This document shows, piece after piece, positions 3,725 through 35,659 of a stretch of DNA of 37,395 nucleotides. A program made the position numbers and the translations under genes. The stretch lies in contig NC_133620.1 in assembly GCF_048593235.1 (NCBI RefSeq), positions 22,161,728 through 22,199,122 on the forward strand. Reading direction: 5' to 3'. Position 1 is the first letter of the stretch. Every line of letters starts with the position of its first letter. The notes beneath the pieces were generated by a model. It was not told the DNA's origin and ran no database searches. It saw only the letters and a program-made list of their open reading frames with translations. The DNA is from Sminthopsis crassicaudata (lineage: Eukaryota).

Positions 3725-3865
3725 GTTTGGGTTTTTCAGAAATGGGTTTTTTTCATTAAAGCTTTTTATTTTCAAAACATCTGCACAGATAATGTTCCAC
3801 ATTCACCCTGCCAAACCTCATGTTCCAGATTTTCCCCTCCCTTCCCCCTCCCCTCGATGGCAAGA
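3725..3865 (-). mobile_element. Short L1 3'-end fragment (dasyurid-type)
   Basis: 'ttttttcattaaagctttttattttcaaaacat...cccctcgatggcaag'; similar to the start of the L1 at about 32.59 kb. Confidence 0.6.
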
Positions 3866-4339
3866 AATGCTTCCCTAGTATTTATTTCCCAGAGCCCGGA
3901 ACTCCTAATTCGAGGGGCTCAGAACCTCCTTTGGCCCCAAAGCTGGCACACGCCTCTGCCCCGGGCTGGGCCCCCACAGGGTGCTAGCCGCCCCCTCGGA
4001 GGACCGGAAGCAGGGTCTGCCCCTCCACTGGCCAGCTTTACCTTCCACCAAAGGTGGCCCAGGGAGTAGCACTAACCAGTGAACCTCTGCACCCCGGGCC
4101 TGCTTCCCTGATCTCTCTGTTGCCGAGACTTAGAGAAGCGCGTGGGGAGGGCTATGCCCTGGCCGCATCCCCCCTCAGAGTGGCCCGCAGGAGGGAGGCC
4201 GCCCAGGCTGTCAGTCAGAGCGCAGAGGGCCAGCGTGGGGTCTGCTGGGGCTCAGGGCTGGACCTTCGAACCTGGGGGTTGTCCCAATTGGGCGTGAAGC
4301 CCCAGAGCGCTGATAGCGCCTCCCTCTCTCTTTATACAG

Positions 4340-4408
4340 TGCGGGGCATTCGGATCGAGAAGAGCAACGCCAAAGAGCCCGTGGACTTTGAGCGATGGGT
4401 GGAAAGAG
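4340..4408 (+). CDS. IFT25: IFT25/HSPB11 coding exon
   Basis: Acceptor tttatacAG, donor GTaaga. Encodes VRGIRIEKSNAKEPVDFERWVER vs human VQTLKIEKSTSKEPVDFEQWIEK. Phases match the flanking exons. Confidence 0.95.
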
Positions 4409-4609
4409 GTAAGAGCGAAATGCCCCTGCACCCCCAGGCTGGGGGGGTTCGGACCTCCACCGAGGATGAGGCAAGGGAAGCAGGAGCCAGAATTAGCGGG
4501 CCTGCTGCTAGTTTCTTCCTCAGCTGGACAATGAGGGAGCCGATAACGGCCCATTGGACTCCAAGGATGCTCTCTGTCCTTCTGTCCTTCTGGGCAGTTC
4601 TGGCATTTA

Positions 4610-4745
4610 GGTTCTAAGCTCCCCCTCACCTCTGCCCCGGTTCTGACATTCTGTTCTGAGACGATTCCCCACTCCAACACTCACTCCCAGCTCTGACATC
4701 ACCTGTTCTGAGGCTGCCCCAGTCCTGACCTCCCCTGTTCTAGAA
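4610..4745 (-). repeat. Degenerate ~30-bp tandem repeat (gttctga/ctctgaca motifs)
   Basis: Recurrent 'tctgacat..ctgttct' units; reverse complement of the repeat family at 21345-21630. Confidence 0.5.
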
Positions 4746-7419: not shown

Positions 7420-7932
7420 ACATCCTGTGTGTGACGGTCAGCTATGAAAGGCTTGGTTCTTCTCAGCGTTCAGTGCTCCCAAGAGACTGTGGACAGAAAA
7501 CGCCATCTGTATAATGTCCGGGGGAGCTTTCTGGAGGTCCTTGGGATGGGCCGTGGTTTCAGCAGGAAAAACACCACGAGGATGGTCAGGAACAGAGTCT
7601 AGAGTCTTTAAAGTCTCCTTCACAGTCTGTCTGTCATAGTCTGGCCCAGTCTTGATCTTAGTGCAGGAAGCAGGAGGCAGGAGAGCCATCAGGAGGATGG
7701 TCAAAGAGGGAGTGTCTCATTTCCAGTCCTTCTCAGGCCTTATATACCTTAGTACAATGACATCATTACAGCAAACTGAGCATGTGCACACTAGAGAACC
7801 ATGACATCATCATGCTAAGCACTAAGTATATTGGAACTAGAGAACCATCATCTCATCAATCCCACCGAGTTAACACCTTGTTGTAAGTATCCTTGTTTCA
7901 AGGAGACCTCTCCAGAGCTCCGGCCCTCTACA
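7420..7932 (-). mobile_element. Solo ERV LTR (left boundary approximate)
   Basis: Begins TGTAGAGGG on the - strand at 7932, with TATATAA at 7746-7740. 7643-7932 is clearly homologous to 33866-34875. Confidence 0.75.
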
Positions 7933-8989
7933 CAGCTGCATCCAGAGAAAGAACTGAGAAGACCAAATGTAAAGCAACAGCTGCTATGTTCACGTCATAT
8001 GTCTGTTTTTATTTTCTCTCCCACAGTTTTTCCCTTTTGATCTGATTTTTCTCCCTACATGAGTCATACAGCAATATGTATTGATAATAAATAACCACGT
8101 TCTAGCCATATGCCCTGGAGGGCTGAAGGACTTCTGGCTGGAGTTCCACATCCTCACCCTGGTGGGCTCTCCAGATCTAGGGAGGATGTCCCAAGGTCCT
8201 GATGCTTTATCTTCATTCAGTTTAAATTTCTCAAACTTTTAAGTGTCTCCCCTTTGCAAGACCCTATAAGTGGTCCTGGGAACCATAAAAACCTACAATT
8301 TCTGACCTCAACGAGCTCATAATCTTATAAGAGACACGCAAATCAACTTGATAAAAGATGGATTGTCAGGGAAAAATGCTTTCTAGGCAGAGAGCTCACT
8401 ATTATTGGGGTGGGGAGGAAAGTGTCAGAAGGAAGATGGCACCTGGACAGGACTTTGAAGGAAGAGGAGCATTTCAGTGAGCAGAGAAGTGACCAATGGC
8501 CAAGAGGGTTCCTCATGAGGCGAGCTATGTGCTGACTAGCTGTCTGGTTTGGCTGGGACATACAAGAAGGAAAACAGAGTTAAATAAGGTTGGAACTGCA
8601 GTAGTTCTTTTATTATCTTGTGGGCCACAGGGAGCCACCTGAGGTGTTTGAGCAGTGCAGTAATGGGGTGCGACCCATGCATTAAGAAGCTTTTGAGACT
8701 TGAGTGAAGGCAGGACTGGTGAGAGAGGAGAGCGTAGGGACCAGGTTGGGAGACTGAGCGCACACCTTGGGGAAACAAAGTCACTCGCCTCTAGAATTCT
8801 TTTCCTGGCTGGCCCAGAGTCTGAGAACCCAGTATCTCCAACCAGCCCCTTTATTACTGGCGCCATCACCACCATTATTTCTGTATATCTGTGCCAATAA
8901 TCTCCATAATTGTTCTACCCACTATTCTTGTGACTGACTTCCCGTTCCAAAGCACCTTTCTCTATCCACTCTTCCCCTGCACAGATTAA

Positions 8990-9105
8990 GTGCCTCTGTT
9001 AGAATGTAAGCTCTCGGAGGGCAGAGACTATCTTCGCTCTTTTACTTATATCCTCAATACTTAGTACAATGTCTGGAATATATTAAGCGCTTAATAAATG
9101 CTTTT
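8990..9105 (+). mobile_element. L2 3'-end fragment (further L2 pieces at about 8300-8780)
   Basis: 'tagaatgtaagctctcggagggcagagac...gcgcttaataaatgc'. Confidence 0.75.
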
Positions 9106-9195
9106 TTTCCCAATCAGTCAATCATTTGTTCACTCATTCTCTCATTCACCATCTGTGAAAAAGAAAAGAAAAGACTGGGGGATCATTAGCTACTT

Positions 9196-9580: not shown

Positions 9581-9649
9581 TTATCGCCTTAGCTTTTCCA
9601 GGACCTTGCGGACCTCTTCCGGGTTGTAACGCCACGGGCCTGGCTCACC
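9581..9649 (-). CDS. DIO1: DIO1 exon 4 coding part
   Basis: Acceptor ttctttttcAG. Encodes [22 protein letters not shown] followed by TAA, vs human [22 protein letters not shown]. Spliced CDS is 325+144+200+69=738 nt, i.e. 245 aa plus stop. Confidence 0.96.
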
Positions 9650-15784: not shown

Positions 15785-15984
15785 CTTGAAGAAGATCCTG
15801 CCTTCCAGGAGAACATAGAAGCGCTCTGGGAGTGCAGCGTAGCTTCTGCTGGCCAGGTTGTCCATGGTGTCTAAAACAACAGGGCACATGGGCTTCTTGT
15901 CCCTTAGCAGCCTGGAAGCTTCCATGCGATCACGAAGGGTGCGATGCTGTCTAATTTCAATATTGTTTGCAAAGGCCCAGCCAT
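15785..15984 (-). CDS. DIO1: DIO1 exon 3
   Basis: Acceptor cccctccAG, donor GTacca. 200 nt encoding [67 protein letters not shown]. Confidence 0.97.
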
Positions 15985-21344: not shown

Positions 21345-21630
21345 ATAGGGAGGGCCTTAGAACTGAGAATGTCAGAGCTGAGGAGGGGGGAGTCTAGAAC
21401 AGGGAATATCAGAGCTGAGGGGGGTCTAGAACAGAGAATATCAGAACTGGGGTATCTAGAAGAATAATAGAGCTGGAAGAAACCTTAGAAATGGAGATGG
21501 CAATGGGTCTTAGAACATGGAATGTCAGAGATGGGGTACCCAGAAGAGGGAATGTCAGAGCTGGAGGAGGAGCTAGAACTGGAAGGGCCTTAGATTGGTA
21601 GGAACACAGAATGTCAAAACTTGAGGGAAC
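21345..21630 (+). repeat. Degenerate ~30-33-bp tandem repeat (tagaacagggaatatcagagctg-type), about 8 units
   Basis: Repeated 'tagaac..gaat(g/a)tcagagctg' units. Confidence 0.75.
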
Positions 21631-23069: not shown

Positions 23070-23394
23070 CATTCATGAAGTCCCAGATGCGATGGCTCTC
23101 CCCGTTTTGGGTGACCACAGGAGAGTTGGGTGCCAGCCCCCCCTGTAGCGCCTGATCCTCCAGGCGCTGCCATCGAACCTTCAGGACAAAGAAGAAGTAC
23201 TGGATGCTGAAGAACGTTGGGCCCCAGTTCTTATACTCAAACGTAGGGTTCTGATTAATGCTAATTCTCTGGCTCAGGAGATTTCTCTTCATCCTGTCTG
23301 GGAACAAGATCTTCTGCACCTTCCCCACTGCAACATGCCAGGCCACCTGCAGCAAGACCCAGAGCCGCCTACCCCAGAGCAGCAGCCCAGCCAT
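23070..23394 (-). CDS. DIO1: DIO1 exon 1 coding part (type 1 iodothyronine deiodinase)
   Basis: ATG at 23394-23392. Encodes [40 protein letters not shown]...[25 protein letters not shown]...[10 protein letters not shown]...IWDFMN(G), the typical DIO1 N-terminal TM segment and following region. Donor GTcagt at 23069. 325 nt, phase 1. Confidence 0.95.
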
Positions 23395-23513
23395 GATGGA
23401 GATGGAGCTCCAACTGGCTGGCTGCAAGGAGGCTGCAAACCGATTAAGAAGAGACAGGAAGAAAAGATCAAAAGCAGGTGAGATCACATCTAGCTGGCAA
23501 AGCCATCCCATGG

Positions 23514-29930: not shown

Positions 29931-30233
29931 CTTAAGGGGGGGTAGCTGCCTCAGTGTATAAAACGCCAGAACTGGAATCAGGAAGACTCATCTTAAAGGG
30001 TTCAAATATGGCCTCAGACACTAGCTGTGTGACCCTGAACAAGTCACTTCACCCTGTTTACCACAGCTTCCTCATCGGTAAAATGAACTGGGGAGAAAAA
30101 TAGCAAACTACTCCAGTCTCTCTGCCCACGAAGTCATATGCGACTGAAACAACTGAACAACAGCGACCATAAATATCGGGTCTTAGAAATTTCCTCCACA
30201 TTAGTGGGAGGTTTTTGGTTGGAGATGCTTACA
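29931..30233 (+). repeat. Copy 1 of a local duplication (MAR1 SINE plus ~65 bp of non-SINE flank)
   Basis: Colinear with 32064-32360. Confidence 0.85.
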
Positions 30234-30350: not shown

Positions 30351-31313
30351 TTTTTTTTTTAATTATAACTTTTTATTGACAGAACATATGCCTGAATAAT
30401 TTTTTACAGCATTGTCCCTTGGACTCACTTCTGTTCTGACTTTTCCCTTCCCTCCCTCCACCTCCCCCCATAGGTGGCAAGCAGTCTCATATATGTTAAA
30501 TGTGTTATAGTATATCTTAAATACAATATATGTGTGCAGAACTGAACAGTCCTCTTGTTGCACAGGAAGAATTGGATTCAGAAGGTAAAAATAACCTGGG
30601 AAAAAACTAAAAATGCAAGTAGTCCACATTAATTTCCCAGTATTCCTTCTCTGGATGTGGCTGATTCTGTCCATTATTGATCAGTTGGATTTGAGTTAGA
30701 TCTTCTCTTTGTTGAAGATATCCACTTCCAACATAATACATCCTCATACAGTATTGTTGTTAAAGTGTATAATGATCTCCTGGTTCTGCTCATTTCACTC
30801 AGCATCAGTTGATGTAAGTCTCTCCAAGCCTCTCTGTATTCCTCCTGTTGGTCATTTCTTACAGAGCAATAATATTCCATAATATTCATATACCATAATT
30901 TACCCAGCCATTCTCCAATTGATGGGCATCCATTCATTTTCCAGTTTCTGGCCACTACAAAAAGGGCTGCCACAAACATTTTGGCACATACAGGTCCCTT
31001 TCCCCTCTTTAGTATTTCTTTGGAATATAAGCCCAATAGTAGCACTTCTGGATCAAAGGGCAAACACAGTTTGATAACTTTTTGGGCATAGATTCCAGAT
31101 TGCTCTCCAGAATGGTTGGATTCTTTCACAACTCCACCAACAATGCATCAGTGTCCCAGTTTTTCCTCATCCCCTCCAACATTCATCATTATCTTTTCCT
31201 GTCATCTTAGCCAATCTGACAGGTGTATAGTGGTATCTCAGAGTTGTCTTAATTTGCATTTCTCTGATCAATAGTAATTTGGAACACTTTCAAAGGAGTG
31301 GAAATTGTTTATT
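30351..31313 (-). mobile_element. 5'-truncated L1 (ORF2 C-terminus, 3'UTR and polyA) with 12-bp TSD
   Basis: ORF 30674-31129 (..LGLYSKEI..CAKMFVAALFVVARNWK..CPSIGEWLGKLWY..) is the L1 ORF2 C-terminal domain. PolyT at about 30349-30360; TSD GAGAGAGCTCTT at 30339-30350 and 31314-31325. Confidence 0.93.
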
Positions 31314-32063: not shown

Positions 32064-32360
32064 CTTAAGGGGGATAGGTGCCTCAGTGGGTAAAACGCCA
32101 GAGCTGGAGTCAGGAAGACTCATTTTAATGAGTTTAAATATGGCCTCAGACACTAGCTGACCCTGAACAAGTCACGTCACCCTGTTTACCACAGCTTCCT
32201 CAACTGTTAAATGAATTTGGGAAGGAAATGGCAAACCACTCCAGTCCCTCTGCCAAGAAGTCATATGTTATTGAAATAACTGAACAATAGCAACCATAAA
32301 TATGGGGTCTTAGAGATTTCCTCCACATTAGTGGGAGGTTCTTGGTTGGAGATGGTCACA
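32064..32360 (+). repeat. Copy 2 of the local duplication
   Basis: Colinear with 29931-30233. Confidence 0.85.
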
Positions 32361-32584: not shown

Positions 32585-33650
32585 GTCTTTTTTTTTTATT
32601 AAATTTATTTATTTTCAAAACACATTATTTTATGAATGGTGTTGGGAGAGAAAAACCAGAGCCGAAGGAAAACCACAGGGGAGGGGAAAAAAAAAACAAA
32701 AAAAAAAAAAACAGAAAAAAGGAGTGAACATAGCATGTGTTAATTTACATTCAGTCTCCTTAGTCCTCTGGATCCAGATGGCTTTTTCTGCCAAAAATCT
32801 ATTGGGATTGCTTTGGATCACTGGATGCTGAGAAGAACCATGCCTTTTGGAGTTGCCCAATGTGTGTGTACAATGTATTCCTGGTTCTGCTTGTTTTGCT
32901 CAGCATCAATCTGTGTAGAATGGGAAGATGAAGAACTTATAGTAATGTGTGAATTCTTTTTCTTATTTTCATTATTCCTGTGTTTCCCTATGACCTCCAT
33001 AAGCACAATATGTACAGGCCTATATTTACTTAAACCTTAATTATAGGCATATTTACTTGACCTAAGTTGGTGACATTTAGCAGTGTTTGACATTTATCGA
33101 TATTATTCTATTAGCTTGACCACTGTCTGCTCGAGATTCTAAAACCTGAAGGCCCAAACCAGACACCTTCCATTCCAATCTCTCCTGATAGCACCAACCA
33201 GTTAGTTACCCCCCCCCCCCAATGCTCTCACTTGTGATGTAATCTCTTGGAACAAAATCTATAAAAGCTGTGTATACTCACTGATTCCTCCGCCCTCCTG
33301 CTGTGAGTACTTTATCTCTCACAGCTGGACTGCCTGCCTCTCATGAGAAGCTATAATAAGCAAGCTTTCTGCTTTCTACTTTGAGTGATCATTGAGTAGT
33401 CATTTTGAGTAGGGGTCTCTCACATCCCACACAAGTTCATGTCAATATTTTTCTAAAATCAGCTTGTTCTAAGTTTTTTATAGAATATTCCATTACCTTC
33501 TTGTACCACAGCTTGTTCAGTCATTCCCCATCTAATGGTCATCTACTCACTTTCCGATTTTTTGCTACTACAAAAAGAGCTGCTACAAACATTTTCCCAT
33601 ATGTGGATTCTTTTCCCTCCTTTAAGATTTCCTTGGGATACAAGCCCAGT
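32585..33650 (-). mobile_element. L1 3' fragment split by an LTR insertion
   Basis: L1 tail at 32585-33010 resumes at about 33432-33650 ('tttgctactacaaaaagagctgctacaaacatttt'). Confidence 0.7.
33011..33431 (+). mobile_element. Solo LTR (second family)
   Basis: TG...CA termini (tgtacagg...cccaca), TATA-like ctataaaag at about 33259, polyA-like aataag at about 33355; interrupts the L1. Confidence 0.6.
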
Positions 33651-34875
33651 GATTGATTGTGTCTGTTAGAGCAATTATTTATTGTGTGTGAATTTGTGGT
33701 AAAAAGTACAAGGCTAAACAAGTCTCTTAGGGCCCCAAGGAACAAGCCACTCCTCCCCTGCATAATTTTGATTGGTGGCTCATTGAAGGAAAATAGCAAC
33801 AACTCAACATCTGTGAACTCATATCAGTAGATGTAATGCTCAGGCTAGCTTTCCCGAGGATCTCAGGACCAGCCTTAATCTTAGTGCAGGAGGCAGGAGG
33901 CAGGAGAACCACCAGGAGGATGGTCAAAGATGGAATGTCTCATTTCCAGTCCTCTCAGCCCTAATATACCTCAATGTGATTACATCATTATAGCACACTG
34001 AGCATGTGTGAACTAGAGAACCATGACATCACCATGCCGAGCACTAAGTATCTATGGGAACTAGAGAACCATGGCATCGCCACGCCGAGCACTAAGTATC
34101 TATGGGAACTAGAGAACCATGGCATCGCCACGCCGAGCACTAAGTATCTATGGGAACTAGAGAGCCATGGCATCGCCACGCCGAGCACTAAGTATCTATG
34201 GGAACTAGAGAGCCATGGCATCGCCACGCCGAGCACTAAGTATCTATGGGAACTAGAGAGCCATGGCATCGCCACGCCGAGCACTAAGTATCTATGGGAA
34301 CTAGAGAGCCATGGCATCGCCACGCCGAGCACTAAGTATCTATGGGAACTAGAGAGCCATGGCATCGCCACGCCGAGCACTAAGTATCTATGGGAACTAG
34401 AGAACCATGGCATCGCCACGCCGAGCACTAAGTATCTATGGGAACTAGAGAGCCATGGCATCGCCACGCCGAGCACTAAGTATCTATGGGAACTAGAGAG
34501 CCATGGCATCGCCACGCCGAGCACTAAGTATCTATGGGAACTAGAGAGCCATGGCATCGCCACGCCGAGCACTAAGTATCTATGGGAACTAGAGAGCCAT
34601 GGCATCGCCACGCCGAGCACTAAGTATCTATGGGAACTAGAGAGCCATGGCATCGCCACGCCGAGCACTAAGTATCTATGGGAACTAGAGAGCCATGGCA
34701 TCGCCACGCCGAGCACTAAGTATCTATGGGAACTAGAGAGCCATGACATCGCCATGCTGAGTACTAAGTATATATGGGAACTAGAGAGCCATCATTTCAT
34801 CTATTCCACTGAGTAACACTTTGTTGCAAGTTTCCTTGTTTCAAGCATACTTCTCCAGAGTTCCAGCCCTCTATA
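33650..34875 (-). mobile_element. Solo ERV LTR carrying an expanded 48-bp array (left boundary approximate)
   Basis: Homologous to 7643-7932 on both sides of the array. Begins TATAGAGGG on the - strand at 34875; TATA-like TATATT at 33968-33963; AATAAA on the - strand at about 33680. Confidence 0.8.
34010..34792. repeat. 48-bp minisatellite (VNTR), about 16.3 copies
   Basis: Unit GAACTAGAGA(G/A)CCATGGCATCGCCACGCCGAGCACTAAGTATCTATGG. Units 2-15 differ only at one G/A site; units 1 and 16 are degenerate. Confidence 0.98.
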
Positions 34876-35659
34876 AGTAGATATCTGTCCCTGGGGAATA
34901 GTTGAGGAATGAGTATCATCCAATCCTGGAAAGATTAAGGTAAGAACCTTTAAACTTTTTTTCATCTACATCAAAGGTGTGTATATGATTCTTAATAACG
35001 GACCCCAAACTATGATTATTGGACCTTGATGTTAGACTTTGTGGGACTATAATTGATGTAGTCTGATTTCAGGTAGGATGATCAAGAAATGCTATTGGGC
35101 CATGGATCAATAAGAGCAGCAGGCAATAGGAATGGCCTCTGGCAACTACTTCAGATGGAGTTTTATCTCAAGGAAAGGTGAGGATGGCCACTTTGAGTCT
35201 GGGTTGAGGTGGGATAATCCTGGCCTGATTACCTTAGTGTAGCATTTCTTCTTGAATGAAGACTTTCTCCACCTGGACAAAATTCTGAGGTTAGCTGTAC
35301 CACTGTTTCAGTGATTCCTATTTTGAATTGACATTAAGTTAGGGAAGTATCCCCTCCTTACTATAGCTATGTCCTTTTTCTTTCTATGACAAATTTCTAT
35401 ATTCATGGCAGGTAATCAGTATGAACTCAATATTAAATCTTTTATCTTATGGGCTAACACTGGAGCACATCTGAACTACCATAATAAGATATAGGTCCAA
35501 GGTTTGAACTCTTTAGTCTAGAATTTTAGTCCTTTCTAAAATTAATGTGAGAATAATTAGGTATTGATGGAATAGTTTATAGGACCAAACTGTTTTTTCT
35601 ATAAATAATTAAGCCTAAAACAGAAACATCTTCAGGTTTTGTCTGAAGAAAAGAATTTT

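Follow-up and report, generated by a model that had tools for sequence, protein, structure and literature searches.

Ms6-hm and Hm-2 of the mouse are two minisatellite loci with very short units. Human minisatellites cluster subtelomerically, and GC-biased gene conversion (gBGC) is known from tandem families such as rDNA and the histone genes. The LTR10A and LTR10F elements of human have an internal VNTR whose repeated unit carries an AP1 motif, and enhancer activity is described for some copies (PMC466953). DSB-driven biased conversion on PRDM9 motifs is reported with a scaled drive of 57–174 (median 57, top 174) (PMC4230742), and an ATCCATG/TRIM28 motif in THE1B is reported to lower recombination in cis (PMC5705219). 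Among marsupials, crossovers in females of dunnart, opossum and possum are described at the chromosome ends and those in males as more interstitial (PMC5852568), and meiotic breaks are described as distal in two American marsupials and evenly spread in the tammar (PMC10166821). The devil PRDM9 is reported as partial, without KRAB and not fast-evolving, its loss being unconfirmed (PMC5519329).

A 48 bp minisatellite in the dunnart Sminthopsis crassicaudata lies inside an LTR on the upstream side of the thyroid-hormone gene DIO1. The stretch of DNA analyzed, termed the window, is 37,395 nt long (contig NC_133620.1, positions 22,161,728 to 22,199,122 of the forward strand). The array and the elements around it are as follows.

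34010..34792, no strand assigned: 48 bp minisatellite of 16.3 units; units 2-15 form a GC- and CpG-shifted core, and units 1 and 16 are nearer to the single copies
34025..34025, plus strand: unit position 16, G here; distal family copies carry G, interstitial copies T
33835..34875, minus strand: host solo LTR, 321 bp without the 15 extra units, class II-like by its 6 bp target-site duplication (TSD), with the array within U3
33829..33834, plus strand: left target-site duplication, AGTAGA
34876..34881, plus strand: right target-site duplication, AGTAGA
33961..33968, minus strand: TATA position of the host LTR, different in sequence from all 61 single copies
33650..34972, minus strand: outer LTR-like element that holds the host LTR, with approximate ends read by eye
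33683-33678, minus strand: AATAAA in the outer element
33484..33648, no strand assigned: repeat fragment split by the outer element, 74% like the repeat at 30871-31035
7612..7931, minus strand: second family copy, termed the sister, with one unit, a different, longer R/U5 end, a left end that is not fixed and G at unit position 16

In the assembly sequence, TRF gives a period of 48, 16.3 copies and 98% matches at 34010-34792; the units are arranged head to tail, and their length is within the 10-100 bp of minisatellites. Units 2-15 are near-identical, as the preliminary description had stated, with position 11 as the sole variable site (units 1-3 and 9 read A there). Unit 1 differs from unit 4 at four positions and unit 16 at five, and at every one the G or C is on the core side. 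The core unit is 54% GC and has three CpGs, with an observed/expected ratio (o/e) of 0.85, and the array is a CpG-rich block (o/e 0.82) amid CpG-poor DNA (o/e 0.22 in the rest of the window); both had been claimed and both stand. CpG islands are defined as sequences of >200 bp with GC >50% and o/e >0.6, a stricter rule calling for 55% GC, and the 783 bp array, at 52.5% GC and o/e 0.82, passes the loose rule and fails the strict one. Its CpG load is the highest among the arrays described below (three per unit, the next 1.5), and none of its CpGs has yet decayed. A recent homogenization, also proposed earlier, is supported by its being the second most uniform among 25 arrays ranked. A hairpin as the expansion trigger was considered and rejected, since the folding of two core units, and of the sister region, does not surpass that of shuffled sequences (z −0.07 to 0.60).

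The host copy begins with TG, ends with TA (CA in most other copies) and is flanked by AGTAGA on both sides. It belongs to a dispersed family with thousands of candidates and a U3-TATA-R-U5 layout; a TATA-like box is found in most of 61 copies and an AATAAA in the long R/U5 type. A TSD scan of 56 single copies, whose search window missed the left end of the long R/U5 type, found 8 exact 6 bp duplications, 2 chance-like 4 bp ones and none in 46. Duplications of 6 bp are those of class II (beta-like) ERVs, which are further marked by a tRNA-Lys primer-binding site (PBS) and a class II pol. Together with a stretch after one family copy elsewhere (L193, C2 349.33 Mb), which we take to be PBS-like, the duplications indicate that the host is a minus-strand solo LTR of class II-like kind. 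In that other region (L193:1762-4180) two family copies lie on the same strand 1.8 kb apart, with the PBS-like stretch after the first; the pair is possibly the remnant of an internally deleted element.

The origin of the array in an LTR U3, and the minus-strand orientation of this LTR toward DIO1, are borne out. The TATA box assigned to the LTR is correct in position and atypical in sequence, as none of the 61 single copies has the same letters; the family letters at sites 33963 and 33965 also occur in contigs from other studies and species labels. The fragment split by the outer element, and the repeat at 30871-31035, are presumably L1-like. A contig with another species label (X14 record 9) matches 33655-33946 at ~90% identity across the left junction of the host LTR, the insertion of which is thus older than that species split. 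In X5 and X7 the unique flank 33655-33830 is not covered, an absence that carries no weight. The sister copy, ~1.7 kb beyond the DIO1 stop codon, had been presented near 7788-7848 as the low-copy state of the same LTR. It does have one unit and the usual partial copy; it is, however, an independent insertion, ~85% identical and with a different R/U5 end. Elsewhere in the window, 29931-30233 and 32064-32360 form a SINE-containing 300 bp direct duplicate, 87% identical and 2.1 kb apart.

The preliminary description had proposed looking for tandem repeats in other genomic copies of this LTR, and at least 38 loci have arrays from the same U3 unit. Searches gave 3,751-4,624 first-look candidates, of which 40 per search were scored; family copies are ~81% alike in pairwise comparison. 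Thirty-six arrays were measured, including the one beside DIO1, and two more were met; they range from 3 to ~446 units, counts that sometimes include a leading half unit, so that unit number differs among paralogous loci. All 36 are <33 Mb from a chromosome end, a portion that makes up 14% of the genome, and single-unit copies are found everywhere; the array queries bore distal-type alleles, and interstitial T-type arrays could be under-sampled. Queries that were unit-blind or had a single unit recovered no locus with three or more units among 45, 39 of them interstitial. Among 100 T-type matches listed on C1 there is no pair one unit apart; in a separate set of matches the one adjacent T pair is at 3.2 Mb. 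Derived alleles at unit positions 26, 30, 33, 37 and 46 are common to the arrays, which may therefore not be 36 independent cases. Unit number shows no correlation with distance from the end (rho −0.25, p=0.14).

Several loci of the family have features of their own. The largest arrays are at C1 8.52-8.54 Mb (L037/L191/L190), C2 2.2 Mb (L162/L163) and C3 639.6 Mb (L038/L192); the largest three have ~446, 307 and 283 units, span 14-21 kb and contain 69-107 distinct unit types. At C1 743 Mb (L031:1008-5196) is an 85-unit array that has the full CRE palindrome TGACGTCA in most units and a recurring 80 bp unit with a short inverted piece. The only array located on the X (C7 57.57 Mb, L189) is 32 Mb from the end and has 0.11 CpG per unit, yet carries G at unit position 16. 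Two identical-scoring two-unit copies lie 7.8 kb apart at C1 24.9 and 32.8 kb (L032/L033); a provirus pair was considered for them and rejected, as they are a 99% segmental tandem duplicate.

That the CpGs of the array are newly made, a further claim of the earlier account, is upheld by the single copies. In 61 of these, CG is present once at unit positions 21-22 and never at 26-27 or 29-30; the usual letters at the three sites are CA (54), TG/TA (34/18) and TA (47). With one CG overall, the CpG is the derived state. Common array variants, those at ≥25% within arrays, change from weak (A/T) to strong (G/C) letters over the reverse at a median of 6.5:1, against 1.2:1 in single copies; each of 34 real interstitial copies served as the yardstick (10th-90th percentile 3.1-10.9), with position 16 left out. 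The DIO1-side array has eight weak-to-strong changes and no strong-to-weak ones. In 17 of 24 arrays the interior is higher in GC than the edges (p=0.02); the remaining seven show no such excess. Arrays with more units have a higher unit GC (rho 0.43, p=0.008), and unit GC is lower farther from the chromosome end (rho −0.38, p=0.02); this distance stands as a proxy for recombination based on literature for related species. Single copies follow the same course: weak-to-strong changes amount to 5.4% in distal copies (255/4689) and 3.1% in interstitial ones (227/7371), a 1.8-fold difference, where the distal set (n=40, against 61 interstitial) was mostly chosen by the pattern at unit position 16 and its 27 pattern columns were left out. 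Strong-to-weak changes, at 8.8% distal and 8.0% interstitial, are unchanged. An excess of weak-to-strong changes, with no excess of weak-to-weak or strong-to-weak ones, fits the signature expected of gBGC. Several larger arrays show the new CpGs beside their decay products, as in C3_640.3 (CG 0.44, CA 0.26), C2_682.06 (0.47 and 0.17) and C1_743 (CG 0.72, TG 0.09), which suggests germline methylation. Three arrays show such decay letters without the CG.

A second distal signal is a T>G change at unit position 16, here termed G16. With T at this position, an exact 27-letter pattern has 587 matches, mostly interstitial; with G it has 82, spread over 52 loci, and a further 15 matches have A or C. 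Of the 52 G16 loci, 48 lie no more than 41 Mb from a chromosome end, in a portion that makes up 18% of the genome. Among the matches listed on C1, G and T number 8 and 0 at 0-24 Mb, 2 and 7 at 24-41 Mb, and 0 and 93 at 41-483 Mb, and for a subset of 81 matches, listed completely, G is found in 3 of 7 within 25 Mb and in 0 of 65 beyond 41 Mb (p=0.0006). The arrays are mostly G16 (34 of 36). The notion that G16 is fixed distally was rejected, as the loci listed for the outermost 25 Mb of C1, C2 and C3-left are six T, one C and two G. All eight C loci of the 27-letter pattern are interstitial, and a simple GC bias, which should favor the commoner T>C, therefore does not explain G16. None of the five U3 haplotype backgrounds lacks the allele, haplotype a being poor in it (1/15, chi-square p=0.016), and it is seen in both R/U5 types. 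Descent from one G16 subfamily is rejected (p-AU 0.02 for a single clade, on 105 rows and only 124 columns, ten of the 115 rows having been dropped for other or unread letters), although the label shows clustering (23 changes, against 33 when shuffled); the change appears to have arisen repeatedly after insertion. G16 occurs with G27 at ~40 of 52 loci, as read by eye, and with A27 as well; among 100 T16 matches listed, about half have G27. A second T>G, at position 46, is alike and weaker (10/38 distal, 0/59 interstitial copies).

Replacing 45-75% of distal copies from the interstitial rate of 4 in ~600 needs ~90-210 times the neutral rate, and the pattern looks like site-specific meiotic drive. 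A conversion drive toward a cold allele may tentatively be put forward for G16, and the T>G could act, for instance, through a newly gained site for a repressor or a CRE-type factor. It is more doubtful that the change is a mutation templated during repair from an 11 bp repeat (ACCATG, 11 bp downstream), and we consider it unlikely that it came by ectopic conversion, and likewise that it reflects an insertion bias of a G-bearing lineage. Templating from the upstream half-repeat was rejected, the corresponding site being T in seven of nine distal G16 copies. A bolder and doubtful proposal is that the unit is a break-prone element in a lineage reported without canonical PRDM9, and that one specific T>G cold allele has become fixed by drive, independently, in dozens of distal copies and ~100-200 times faster than under neutrality, the same breaks seeding minisatellites and the G/C ratchet. 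Should it be true, hotspot drive by gain of one site would be legible as a fossil recombination map of the genome.

For the array itself, we regard a neutral by-product of distal meiotic recombination as the likely explanation, with gBGC the likely supplier of the new CpGs. A single-unit LTR already has its unit flanked by two partial copies, and misaligned repair between the unit and these partial copies would start an array. Repeated unequal exchange and conversion would then lengthen and homogenize the interior and leave the edge units behind, and heteroduplex mismatch repair favoring G/C would turn CpA/TpG into CpG. The DIO1-side array would represent one recent sweep of a unit with 7-8 such changes. 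Replication slippage alone, with CpGs that are ancestral, kept in the array and decayed elsewhere, could call on the fact that CpA and TpG are the usual decay products of CpG. Ancestral CpGs should, however, leave both products, and the single copies have 54 CA and no TG at 21-22, 57 CA and no TG at 18-19, and 47 TA at 29-30; moreover, the non-CpG sites 11, 17, 33 and 43 also move to G/C, and slippage does not predict a distal restriction. Single-copy letters and array polarity largely refute such an origin, and we give it hardly any credence. An assembly artefact is just as improbable: the 14 near-identical units are known here from the assembly, but the edge units are distinct, the A/G site is patterned, 21 kb arrays with 91 distinct units are resolved in the same assembly, and array-type alleles of the family are present in contigs from other studies and species labels. 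If ectopic conversion in a telomere bouquet spread units and alleles from chromosome to chromosome among the distal copies, the arrays would be one network instead of separate births. The same derived alleles do recur in arrays on six autosomes, and the bouquet is described in marsupial meiosis (PMC10166821); against this, the array flanks are spread over all haplotype types, 11 of 12 distal G16 single copies retain an A30 that lies 14 bp off and is replaced in large arrays, and at position 27, 11 bp off, G16 is accompanied by either allele. Conversion tracts would thus need to be very short, and a single network is quite unlikely.

The gene that the LTR faces has four coding exons in the window.

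23070..23394, minus strand: first coding exon of DIO1, ATG at 23394, Pfam PF00837
21097..21240, minus strand: coding exon 2, with an in-frame TGA (FGSCT*PSF)
15785..15984, minus strand: coding exon 3
9581..9649, minus strand: last coding exon, to the stop codon

From this four-coding-exon layout we take the gene to be DIO1 rather than DIO2/3; a PDB search with exon 1 gave no matches. The region 23395-23480 shows a branch-point-like word and a pyrimidine tract with AG ~38 nt upstream of the ATG. This splice-acceptor-like tract makes an upstream exon likely, and the first exon of DIO1 may be non-coding and lie far upstream. A degenerate 32 bp tandem repeat is found at 21358-21461, in intron 1 just upstream of exon 2.

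The preliminary description had read the array as an enhancer or alternative promoter acting on DIO1 and variable in both copy number and methylation, a role that we judge improbable. The array is indeed sense to DIO1 and 10.6 kb upstream of the ATG, in line with the distance first given; in addition to the acceptor-like tract at the first coding exon, donor-like words are present on the minus strand at 33550 and 33281. The array is the most CpG-rich of all, which leaves room for selection, its CpGs are so far undecayed, and the VNTRs of human LTR10 offer a precedent (PMC466953). The same unit is, however, expanded at ≥36 distal loci, with at least 37 other arrays. The CRE-like sequence TGACATCA is kept in unit 1 and the sister and is absent from the amplified core unit; in a short list of motifs, the core shows no TRE half-site, AP-1, E-box, GC-box or CCAAT and one E2F-like word, and on that list the repeated unit does not carry an activator motif as in LTR10. 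The atypical TATA of the host LTR, and an AATAAA at 33683 on the same strand, 280 nt downstream and before the first donor-like word, also speak against it, as does the germline methylation suggested by decay products in several larger arrays. Finally, a true CpG-island promoter is situated ~11 kb beyond the array and is, we infer, the likelier source of the DIO1 upstream exon. At least 38 arrays from one LTR spot, distal and GC-richer, make a by-product of recombination likelier than a DIO1 switch, and on that reading the place of the array near DIO1 would be incidental.

On C4, ~10 kb beyond the array (L035:7744-8431), is another minisatellite, GC- and CpG-rich, with units of 42-55 bp over ~690 bp. 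The CpG-island promoter (L035 ~8450-9120), with a donor-like word near 9107, adjoins it. Judged by its position, this second minisatellite makes a stronger candidate than the array as a VNTR with a regulatory role between DIO1 and the gene lying head to head with it, presumably YIPF1 by synteny; a Pfam Yip1 search of the genome gave no matches.

For DIO1 itself the array is probably of little consequence, and its locus is one ordinary case of a process that recurs. The LTR family is a natural experiment: only distal copies expand and gain G/C, and the birth of minisatellites and the gain of CpGs, probably by conversion, can be viewed next to unexpanded controls. The G16 allele and the arrays may serve as markers of where the marsupial germline recombines, and G16 offers a route to test sequence-specific drive in mammals with unsettled PRDM9 status. 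A literature search of open main text found nothing on this LTR minisatellite family, whose LTR may be named in Repbase/Dfam, or on the G16 allele, and the 48 bp repeat was not found in the portions available of two accounts of dasyurid ERVs (PMC4408412, PMC11334065). LTR-born minisatellites are already known; the family-wide distal expansion, the G/C ratchet and the parallel transversion are, as far as that search goes, new.

As in rDNA and histone gene conversion and the subtelomeric minisatellites of human, the dunnart family shows a shift from A/T to G/C and distal clustering; unlike them, it is one LTR family whose thousands of unexpanded copies act as matched controls within a single genome. 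Like the mouse Ms6-hm and Hm-2 loci in MaLR LTRs (PMC9659126), its arrays were born inside LTRs, but they number ≥38 loci with one 48 bp unit in a class II-like LTR. LTR10A and LTR10F are similar in that an internal unit, of 28-30 bp in LTR10, expands at many copies of an ERV LTR family and varies in length. LTR10 repeats its AP1 motif, with enhancer activity described for some copies, whereas the amplified dunnart unit has lost the CRE-like site and any activity is hypothetical; confinement to chromosome ends with a G/C shift sets the dunnart arrays apart from LTR10 as described in PMC466953. The THE1B ATCCATG is likewise a short LTR motif, and a cold allele of such a kind would be favored by conversion; for G16 the binder and the cooling are putative, and PMC5705219, as far as its text was available, does not describe drive toward the motif. 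With the PRDM9 motifs of THE1 LTRs, the dunnart family shares a family-wide, recombination-dependent substitution of an LTR motif (PMC4230742, PMC5698624), and the drive range reported for PRDM9 motifs (57-174) is close to the 90-210 needed for G16. The loss of the THE1 motif is described as proceeding by many different mutations under PRDM9, whereas one specific transversion dominates in the dunnart LTR.
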